A stretch of DNA of 64,000 nucleotides, from positions 5,885 to 69,884 of IMG/VR virus record IMGVR_UViG_3300020411_004054, one strand, 5' to 3'. Source of the DNA: a virus. Lineage: Duplodnaviria > Caudoviricetes. Below, piece by piece: positions 26,517-54,082 of this stretch. How positions within the stretch are numbered: position 1 is the first letter of the stretch; every line of letters begins with the position of its first letter. The notes beneath the pieces were generated by a model that had not been told where the DNA came from, ran no database searches, and saw only the letters and a program-made list of their open reading frames with translations. A program made the position numbers and the translations under genes.

Positions 26517-26593
26517 CGGCTCCTAGCTCAATCGGTTAGAGCAGCGGTCTCATAAACCGCAGGTTCTGGGTTCGATCCCCAGGGAGCCGACCA
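26517..26593 (+). tRNA. tRNA with CAT anticodon (elongator Met or Ile2)
   Basis: CGGCTCC/GGAGCCG acceptor, GCGGT-CTCATAA-ACCGC arm, TTCGATC loop, encoded CCA; paired position 1-72 argues against initiator. Confidence 0.93.
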
Positions 26594-26597
26594 ACCA

Positions 26598-26915
26598 TAG
26601 GGGTAAGTGGCATCGGATAAACAGAGCGATCCTGCCGATGTCACTCCCCGACTTAAAATTAGAATGTGGGAGTCACAGGCCAGATAGATTTAGATAGATC
26701 ACCGGGCACTTGCTTAGCGTTTGGAGCGTTAACATCTTAAAGACGAGATGAAGTGGGTGGCATGCCGGTTGATGCTAAACTAGTGGTTGCGTAAGCGTTG
26801 GGATTATAATTATTCCGGACAGGCTGTGACAGATCAGGGATGTTGGGTGACCCTGATCGCTCTTTTACAACTAGATATGAGGAAGCTTGGTGGCGGGTGA
26901 AAACCCCGACCCCTA
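26598..26915 (+). ncRNA. Candidate ~320-nt structured ncRNA of unknown family
   Basis: Closing helix TAGGGGT/ACCCCTA, 11-bp hairpin, long-range GTCACAG/CTGTGAC, 9-bp loop pairing and a GAAA-capped hairpin; no long ORF. Confidence 0.65.
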
Positions 26916-27047
26916 AAGTTCGAAGCCCTCTCCGGAGGTGGGGAAAACAGTGCTAGCTCGACCACTGCCGCTGTGTATATCGGCGCGCCATCTTCTTCTT
27001 TTTTTCAAAATATCTAAAACGCGTAACACAATACGCATATCTTATAA

Positions 27048-27749
27048 ATGAGGGCCATGGAAGCAGAAGCAAAAGGCAAGCTGACAGATTTTGACAGACG
27101 CCTGCATGCACAGCTTCAACCCTTTCTAGATGCCGGATTACTAACACAGGTACCTAACAAGTGGCAGATCACTCAAGGTGCATGTCAAATGGCACCCTAC
27201 GTAGTCTTTCCGGATGACGATGATGCTGAGCGATATAAGGGAGCTCCCATGGGGCATCCGATTCTGCGAACACCTCTCGTCCTTTACTACGTCGGCCTCG
27301 ACCATTTCCATATAGGATCAGGCTTGGGCGCTAGAAAAAAGAGTATCATCAAGCACTTGAATATAGTCCATCACCAAGAGATGCCGGACTACGACCTCCA
27401 GCTTCTTCAACTTCATAAAGACGGGCTAGACCAACTCGCGCGCTACACAAAAGAATTAGATAACAGAAAAGCAAAGCAATCAATAAAGCGCGATAAGAGA
27501 CTGATAGACAAAGTGCTACCAAACGCAAGACACTACAGGAACGAGATCCTCAAGACAGGGGGATTCATAGATAGAGCGCGACGGCTAGACTACACACCTG
27601 ATTCTCAGATACCCAGCTTCTTAAGAGCGGAGTTCTTCTCTTTAGTACGGTTCCTGGAATGGTGCAATAGCCTCCCGGCTCACACCCCTGCCCTTCAGAA
27701 GCCCTGGGCTCTGCTACGACACGTAGGAACTATCTTTCGAAAGGGGTAG
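27048..27749 (+). CDS. Hypothetical protein
   Basis: 233-aa ORF with globular-looking composition. Confidence 0.7.
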   Translation: MRAMEAEAKGKLTDFDRRLHAQLQPFLDAGLLTQVPNKWQITQGACQMAPYVVFPDDDDAERYKGAPMGHPILRTPLVLYYVGLDHFHIGSGLGARKKSIIKHLNIVHHQEMPDYDLQLLQLHKDGLDQLARYTKELDNRKAKQSIKRDKRLIDKVLPNARHYRNEILKTGGFIDRARRLDYTPDSQIPSFLRAEFFSLVRFLEWCNSLPAHTPALQKPWALLRHVGTIFRKG

Positions 27750-29907: not shown

Positions 29908-30074
29908 ATCATGCTCTTTGGAGTTTAAACAAATCCTGTCATGTGTGGGTGGCACAGCGTTCTTCGTCGTTCGACACAGGGAGAACCGGCCTCAGGTGAG
30001 TGGATGTTGGGTGTTGCAAATAGGGGAGCATCCATCGAAGCCCGCACAATTTTTAAACGAGAGGAAAATCAGAT

Positions 30075-53722: not shown

Positions 53723-54082
53723 GGGGGCGAAAAGGTTTCGACAGGGTGTAACGCCTTGATGGTGCAAGTATCCAACGGTAACACATGGATTGATAGTGTT
53801 GCAAATTTTAAATGCCAACGATAATGTTGAGTACGATTACGCCTTAGCTGCTTAATCCGGGGTTTCCAGCAACCTTGTTATCAAAGCTGGATAAGTGGTT
53901 GATCCCACCGAAATAAACAAGATCAAAAATGGTTCCTAGAAATAGGTGAGATCCTGATTCTCGATAAGGATGGGTGGTTTTTCGAGATACCTTGTTAGTT
54001 TGGGAATAAGCTGACTAAACTTGTGAATGACCTGATATGCTGAGCATTTTGGACGCGGGTTCGATTCCCGCCGCTTCCACCA
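53723..54082 (+). ncRNA. ssrA: tmRNA; tag (A)ANDNVEYDYALAA at 53814-53855
   Basis: GGGGGCG/CGCTTCC-A-CCA acceptor with G3-U70, GGTTTCGAC D-region, GCGGGTTCGATTCCCGC T-arm, tag ending YALAA-stop. Confidence 0.95.

Follow-up and report, generated by a model that had tools for sequence, protein, structure and literature searches.

What does a large marine phage keep in a gap of 454 nt that lies between a tRNA gene and the next convincing gene? The question is raised by the stretch of 64,000 nucleotides analysed here (the window), which is uncultured marine phage DNA and which, encoding a tmRNA, four tRNAs, PhoH, PrkA and helicases, looks like a large phage. The longest ORFs of the gap (26594-27047) span 37-43 aa and none exceeds 43 aa, in agreement with an initial annotation of this DNA which had seen no long ORF here and had proposed an unannotated structured ncRNA just 3' of tRNA(CAT) (26517-26593). 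The presence of such an RNA is borne out by the match to a covariance model and by covariation among homologues, which together place a real member of an RNA family at 26666-26866 on the + strand, an assignment that we regard as close to certain. The family is that of a non-coding RNA gene of marine T4-like phages, conserved, folded and specific to one strand, which is tied physically to tRNA clusters. Among marine viruses, T4-like phages rank with the most abundant.

Recovery and covariation of the family

When the gap was compared by BLAST with the one related IMG/VR record, of 201 kb, two short matches lying side by side were obtained; the locus of that record holds a shorter homologue in which the conserved blocks recur and two helices have undergone compensatory changes. 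Two initial scans of IMG/VR with exact words produced chance matches only; the members of the family were gathered by three pattern scans designed from the shared blocks. Of the three collecting patterns, two had the P3 motif as a required element, one of them also GTTGGG, and the last had GTGGG and CCAGA, so the 'invariance' of GTGGG, P3, GTTGGG and CCAGA is partly built in. Across 185,579 species genomes, a strict pattern scan found two MAG contigs only, one of which arranges its tRNA cluster as viral locus L086 does and therefore looks like a phage contig. When the region and a canonical member were compared by blastn with 50,697 deposited phage genomes, tRNA matches or nothing were returned, and at this sensitivity the structured RNA has no cultured phage relative in that collection.

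The covariance model (R1) was built from seven members from other phages, with the window excluded, and its structure was read from their alignment. Applied to the 64-kb window, R1 gives a single match, at 26666-26864, which scores 57.4 bits (E ~3e-12) and covers model positions 1-119 of 119. Covariation was assessed on 38 matches, corresponding to 34 distinct sequences. Because these sequences were aligned to the model itself, the alignment is biased towards the structure, but the margins are large: 96.7% of pair cells form standard pairs compared with 79.9% in shuffles (0 of 500 shuffles reach 96.7%), both sides have changed in 21 of the 26 pairs, and shuffling lowers the covariation score from 0.514 to 0.206. 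If the partners are displaced by 1-3 columns, no more than 48.5% of cells pair. The MFE structure of each sequence taken by itself has the same architecture as the family model, and so has that of 26666-26866 alone. Homologue covariation, one of the checks that the initial annotation had put forward, is thus found in the 26666-26866 fold.

Another of those checks, a search of Rfam, gave no match. At the gathering score and with E up to 10, Rfam 15 cmscan of the gap 26594-27047 finds noise only (E 0.14-9.9), and cmscan of five canonical members finds no match to the RNA. No published description of the family was found, the 10,006 unnamed candidates of an IMG/VR structured-RNA survey lying outside this comparison (PMC10690425). 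It is accordingly a new RNA family within a known kind, the phage tRNA-island RNAs, and the broad kind of phage RNAs beside tRNA genes is where the initial annotation had placed it.

Several RNAs of this kind invite comparison. T4 itself encodes rnaC (species 1, 139 nt) and rnaD (species 2, 119 nt), which are likewise stable RNAs of a tRNA cluster and lie directly after tRNA-Arg; in fifty years, no role has become known for the small RNAs of this cluster (PMC3014915). rnaC and rnaD are not detectably homologous to the present family: with filters off, the best score of R1 across T4 69000-75000 is 6.5 bits, and it falls on the D-arm of tRNA-Gln. YrlA (RF02553), a Y-RNA-like molecule, is also small and structured, has tRNA-like features and is found in phages, but its only match here (25 bits against a gathering score of 69) is to neighbouring tRNAs, and the conserved core of the present family has no T-loop. 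GOLLD (RF01998) and ROOL (RF03087) are large structured RNAs of phages and prophages, of unknown role, that often lie beside tRNA genes. Both are much larger than the present RNA (~600-800 nt), and cmscan with E up to 10 matches neither of them to the window or to five members.

A scaffold with an exchangeable arm

The family consensus begins with a 5' GUGGG tail, which is followed by P1 (7-8 bp), one purine, CCA, GA, a P2 arm of 12-98 nt, G, UGG, U, the mini-hairpin UGC-GNAA-GCG, U, a P4 hairpin of 0-54 nt and a strand ending in AGG; its 3' part consists of the 3' strand of P1, one or two nt, and P5 (7-8 bp) with the loop AAG-N-UGGGAA, after which about two thirds of members have a U-tract. 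In the fold that covariation supports, P1 closes a four-way junction that holds a modular P2 arm, P3 and the variable P4, and the 3' hairpin P5 follows. The corresponding features of the window are collected in Table 1.

Table 1. Features of the tRNA-Met locus and of the structured RNA that it contains (positions in the window unless another locus is named)
Feature	Position	Strand	Basis and remarks
tRNA-Met (anticodon CAT)	26517..26593	+	ARAGORN; Rfam tRNA 68.5 bits; upstream neighbour of the structured RNA
Spacer hairpin, 11-bp stem AGTGGCATCGG/CCGATGTCACT	26606..26644	+	Sequence, MFE; between tRNA and RNA
Conserved structured ncRNA, marine T4-like phage family	26666..26866	+	R1 match, covariation, MFE
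Single-stranded 5' tail GUGGG	26666..26670	+	Identical in 34/34 distinct members; last of three search patterns required the motif, two required parts of the core
P1, 5' strand	26672..26678	+	Pairs with 26824-26830
P2 arm	26680..26786	+	Base CCA/UGG (26680-82 with 26784-86), then GA/G internal loop
P2 apical domain, 98 nt	26685..26782	+	ACCGG-G-CAC...GUG-GCAUG-CCGGU motif and two inner hairpins
P3 mini-hairpin UGC-GUAA-GCG, GNRA tetraloop	26788..26797	+	Stem identical in 34/34; loop GUAA or GGAA; motif in search patterns
P4 variable hairpin	26799..26816	+	0-54 nt across members; stem covaries
J4/1 junction ending AGG	AGG 26821-26823; P4 and J4/1 26799..26823	+	AGG invariant
P1, 3' strand	26824..26830	+	Pairs with 26672-26678
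P5 hairpin and tail	26832..26866	+	Stem 26832-39 with 26851-58, GATCAGGG/CCCTGATC; 7/7 model pairs covary
P5 loop AUGUUGGGUGA	26840-50	+	Near-invariant UGGG (26844-47)
Tail GCUCUUUU, weak U-tract	after P5	+	Sequence
Module 2, second conserved structured element	26886..27005	+	Also L095:1857-1990 and L114:12718-12854 (-)
Downstream gene, 233 aa	27048..27749	+	Next convincing gene; no Pfam or PHROG family

All of the family motifs are present in the window, namely GUGGG, CCA-GA...G-UGG (26680-84 with 26783-86), UUGCGNAAGCG (26787-97), AGG and UGGG. The first model pair of its P1 is A-A and unpaired; otherwise every family helix (P1, P2 base, P3, P4 and P5) forms. Across the family, compensatory changes occur in every one of the eight model pairs of P1, with 99% of their cells paired, and the C-G pair at the base of P2 is flipped to G-C in L048 and L054. 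Several helices of the initial annotation are recovered in this fold with the support of homologues, since its GTCACAG/CTGTGAC is P1, its ACCGG/CCGGT is the distal P2 helix and its GATCAGGG/CCCTGATC is P5; the hairpin CATCTT/GAGATG, which it had also listed, recurs in L095.

The P2 arm is where members differ in kind. An apical domain like that of the window is common to L095, L044, L054 and L048, and within this subgroup the ACCGG-G-CAC...GUG-GCAUG-CCGGU core is identical while the apical helices covary (UUUAG/CUAAA, CUUAG/CUAAG, CCAGCA/UGCUGG and CUAGUC/GACUAG), the outer helices completely so. Other family members carry at least three further kinds of P2 tip. The picture given by these alignments is of a conserved scaffold carrying a modular apical domain, and the window copy is a divergent member with an elaborated P2 arm.

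At the 3' end, the UGGG core of the P5 loop is retained in all members, and the loop variant of the window, AUGUUGGGUGA, is also found in L130. Four or more U directly follow P5 in about 22 of 33 members, and in four members without a U-tract a tRNA directly follows. A pairing of the 5' tail with the 3' strand of P5, proposed by RNAalifold, was rejected: P5 covaries strongly, and the alternative pairing is absent in the window, L054 and L048. The RNA contains no conserved small ORF; its short AUG frames reach a stop within 7 to 35 codons, and L048 is without an AUG.

Linkage to tRNA genes and possible roles

The RNA occurs in one copy each in five IMG/VR records of 85-201 kb, one of which is complete with terminal repeats, and four of the five carrier records contain a Gp23-type major capsid gene. 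Seven members (L060, L066, L080, L083, L099, L124 and L126) have a same-strand tRNA within ~10 nt, L083 lying between two tRNAs, and several further members, together with the window, have one within ~70-180 nt. The upstream tRNA is frequently tRNA-Arg(UCU). The fetched locus contains no tRNA in about one third of members, and many members are separated from any tRNA by hundreds to thousands of nt or lack one in the locus. Cotranscription of the RNA with a tRNA, which the initial annotation had suggested, is plausible: in the window tRNA-Met and the structured RNA are on the same strand and 72 nt apart, and relatives abut tRNAs.

We lean, by no great measure, towards regarding the RNA as the product of a stable ncRNA gene of ~200 nt, present once per genome in large uncultured marine T4-like phages, linked to tRNAs and acting in trans. 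Such an RNA would share a transcript with neighbouring tRNA genes. Maturation of the 3' end of the upstream tRNA would set the 5' end of the RNA, and its 3' end would arise either at P5, by intrinsic termination, or where RNase P cuts the next tRNA. The released molecule would then act in trans, its scaffold showing GUGGG, AGG and UGGG to a partner in tRNA or translation metabolism. The parts of this proposal differ in probability: that the RNA is matured with the tRNAs seems to us an evenly balanced matter, and that it is a trans-acting binder working through its UGGG elements is a tentative suggestion about which we are rather doubtful. The window shows no excess of sites with which the tail or the loop could pair (TCCCAAC, CTCCCAC).

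In the T-box leader (RF00230) and in the L15 loop of RNase P, a single-stranded UGGN or GGU holds the 3' NCCA ends of tRNA. The invariant single-stranded UGGG elements of the present RNA adjoin tRNA genes, a likeness that is a lead only. Unlike the T-box, the RNA has no Rfam match and no specifier/antiterminator architecture, and its fourth base does not covary with the discriminator base. A second likeness, which is again a lead and not a test, is that the P5 loop AAGUUGGGAA agrees with the D-loop of T4 tRNA-Gln, AAGUUGGUAA, at nine of 10 positions. The RNA might be a phage device directed at tRNA, an idea that we hold to be a long shot. Its rigid four-way-junction scaffold would then employ the two invariant single-stranded UGGG elements and the D-loop-like P5 loop either to seize the 3' ends or elbows of tRNAs or to mimic a piece of tRNA. 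As a tRNA mimic, it could be a decoy or sponge for host defence nucleases that target tRNA, or for tRNA-handling enzymes, early in infection; in either case, its swappable P2 tip would tune the partner.

The foremost alternative to a trans-acting RNA is that the structure is a punctuation or protection element of tRNA operons that is functionless once released, perhaps a signal for processing, a block to exonucleases or a decayed structure of tRNA origin that is retained for maturation of the transcript. The close packing with tRNAs would suit such an element, as would the cloverleaf-like four-way junction closed by a helix of 7-8 bp and the resemblance of the P5 loop to the T4 tRNA-Gln D-loop (9/10 positions). 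However, many members lie far from any tRNA or have none in the locus, and neither ARAGORN nor the Rfam tRNA model recognises the RNA. Moreover, the maintenance of invariant unpaired motifs and of a modular apical domain across divergent phages suggests a selected RNA function, and we consider a mere punctuation element unlikely.

Another alternative is a cis-acting leader, either a riboswitch or an attenuator, whose junction would sense a ligand or factor and whose P5 and U-tract would form a regulated terminator for the gene downstream. The U-tract that about two thirds of members have after P5 would fit this arrangement, and in L044 and L048 a Shine-Dalgarno sequence and start codon are found within ~30 nt downstream. 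Against it, members have unrelated genes downstream and share no flanking protein family; relatives of the window's 233-aa gene are without the RNA; and several members directly precede a tRNA or sit between two tRNAs. Furthermore, no covarying alternative antiterminator pairing is seen, and the P5 loop is conserved, a feature that a plain terminator does not need. A leader is therefore quite unlikely in our estimation, and a trans-acting, tRNA-linked RNA remains the reading that we prefer.

A compact and well-supported fold that is found in single copy and in association with tRNA genes in dozens of large marine phages, and also in ocean RNA libraries, offers a tractable entry to the non-tRNA RNAs of phage tRNA islands, as it has only 95-200 nt and clear invariant motifs to mutate.

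The composite region and its surroundings

The initial annotation had drawn the RNA differently, as one pseudoknotted RNA or ribozyme of ~320 nt at 26598-26915 closed by TAGGGGT/ACCCCTA. All of the complementary segments that it listed do exist in the sequence, and the MFE structure of 26594-26920 (z-score -2.48) includes the closing helix. About three perfect 7-bp matches are, by simple arithmetic, expected by chance in 320 nt. The closing helix (26598-604/26909-915) has no counterpart in 33 relatives and its 3' half is inside module 2, an element that occurs alone in L114. The pseudoknot AGAGCGATC/GATCGCTCT is likewise without a counterpart in the relatives, and a natural DNA variant with 26630 T>A and 26859 G>A breaks a pair of it at each position, without compensation. 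The proposed crossing pairs GCTTA/TAAGC and GTTTGG/CTAAAC collide with covarying pairs of P3 and P2. Finally, nothing points to a ribozyme or to splicing, and no small-ribozyme or group I/II intron family of Rfam matches the gap or five members. A single 320-nt molecule is very improbable on this evidence; the conserved RNA is confined to 26666-26866 and is flanked by separate elements. By comparison with the variant that disrupts the pseudoknot, two further natural changes fit the family fold: 26829 A>G turns a U-A pair of P1 into U-G, and 26756 G>A, seen in a relative from an RNA library, turns a U-G pair of the P2 tip into U-A.

The 320-nt unit is thus a composite of a spacer hairpin, the family RNA and the start of module 2, and for annotation this means that a gap of 454 nt that had appeared 'empty' contains at least two separate RNA candidates. 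The spacer hairpin is the 11-bp hairpin of the initial annotation. It is real, but it is not part of the conserved RNA, being found in this window only, with no counterpart in the closest relative, L095.

Module 2 comprises a GAAA-capped hairpin, the T-loop-like GUUCGAAGC, a hairpin with the conserved loop CUAGCUCGAC, a closing stem and a U-run. The stem of the hairpin covaries (CAGUG/CACUG vs CGACG/CGUCG) around the conserved loop CUAGCUNGAC, and six of the 27 predicted pairs are compensatory in what is a set of three sequences only. Module 2 follows the RNA in L095 and stands alone in L114. No Rfam family matches it, and five genomes carrying the main RNA, one of them complete, lack it; the sole record that has module 2 alone (38% complete) is without the main RNA. 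To judge from this distribution, module 2 is an element independent of the main RNA. A kissing interaction of the P5 loop with the T-loop-like motif of module 2 was considered and set aside as a general mechanism, module 2 being missing from those five RNA-carrying genomes.

Right after module 2 in L095 (~1975-2182, +) a tRNA-like 5' half, GGGGTAGCTCAGTCG..., is followed ~150 nt further on by the T-arm-like GGTTCAAATCC, which has an acceptor-like end. No tRNA is called there by ARAGORN; the two halves may belong to a tRNA gene that is interrupted by a large insertion or an intron.

A second intergenic gap of the window, 29908-30062 (+), also follows a tRNA, tRNA-Arg(UCU). It begins ATGTGTGGGTGGCACAG and has the 10-mer ATGTTGGGTG in common with the P5 loop. 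As a candidate second copy of the RNA, 29945-30054 was rejected as a family member, with an R1 score of 2.2 bits and a fold z-score of +0.58; the long closing stem and T-run of 29908-30062 may be a simple terminator.

The thermodynamic signal of the main locus is modest and does not tell the strand, MFE z-scores being -2.48 on the + strand and -2.61 on the - strand for 26594-26920, and -1.92 for 26666-26866. The strand is told by the pairs themselves, because the invariant U-G pair of P3 and many G-U pairs of P1 would be A-C mismatches on the opposite strand. The U-tracts and the orientation of the tRNAs, all of which share the strand of the RNA in the member loci where they are found, likewise indicate the + strand. 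That the locus acts as DNA, for instance in protein binding or recombination, and not as RNA is in keeping with the similar z-scores of the two strands, but it is scarcely credible given conserved G-U/U-G pairs that work on one strand only, an orientation that is always that of neighbouring tRNAs with U-tracts on the same strand, and the presence of the sequence in RNA-library contigs.

These contigs come from two marine RNA libraries of one study and cover 26664-26823 and 26663-26818 with zero mismatches; a relative that is ~90% identical reaches a depth of 27.6 in an RNA library. They hint at expression, with DNA carry-over in the libraries being possible. The libraries are tiny, so that missing cover over the flanking ORFs is unusable as evidence, and the contig ends are uninformative on the ends of the RNA because they follow SNP 26662 or stop short of SNP 26829. 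Transcription could begin within the 5' tail, from a weak sigma-70-like site at 26638-26665 (ATGTCA-16-TAGAAT). In run X20, a marine RNA library, a relative of the P2 arm (26693-26798, ~90% identical) has ~7x the depth of the exact sequence and continues into unlike sequence on both sides of 26693-26798. This greater depth indicates that a related phage RNA with the same apical domain is more abundant there.

The 233-aa downstream gene is unlinked to the structured RNA in its relatives. Proteins of 35-58% identity are encoded in 27 metagenome loci and one viral locus, and the RNA is not beside them; among the 27 loci, the RNA is found only in the one that is identical to the window (contig MDSZ01155753.1). 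One relative, P0002, is 80% identical. The 28 relatives occur in marine metagenomes, in a Bdellovibrionota MAG and on multi-megabase contigs. The protein may be an enzyme, to judge from positions at which His, Asp and Gln are invariant, an HHQ-like block being one example.

Elsewhere in the window, and besides its four tRNAs, the tmRNA lies at 53723-54082 (+), scores 109 bits with Rfam and encodes the tag ANDNVEYDYALAA. Just 5' of the 233-aa gene, the motif TATAAATG (27038-27050) resembles the T4 late-promoter box TATAAATA. The same motif is found upstream of genes in L038, a related 201-kb phage, at about 1150-1165 and 2695-2710, where it is followed by a GGAGGGG...CCCC hairpin and a ribosome-binding site.
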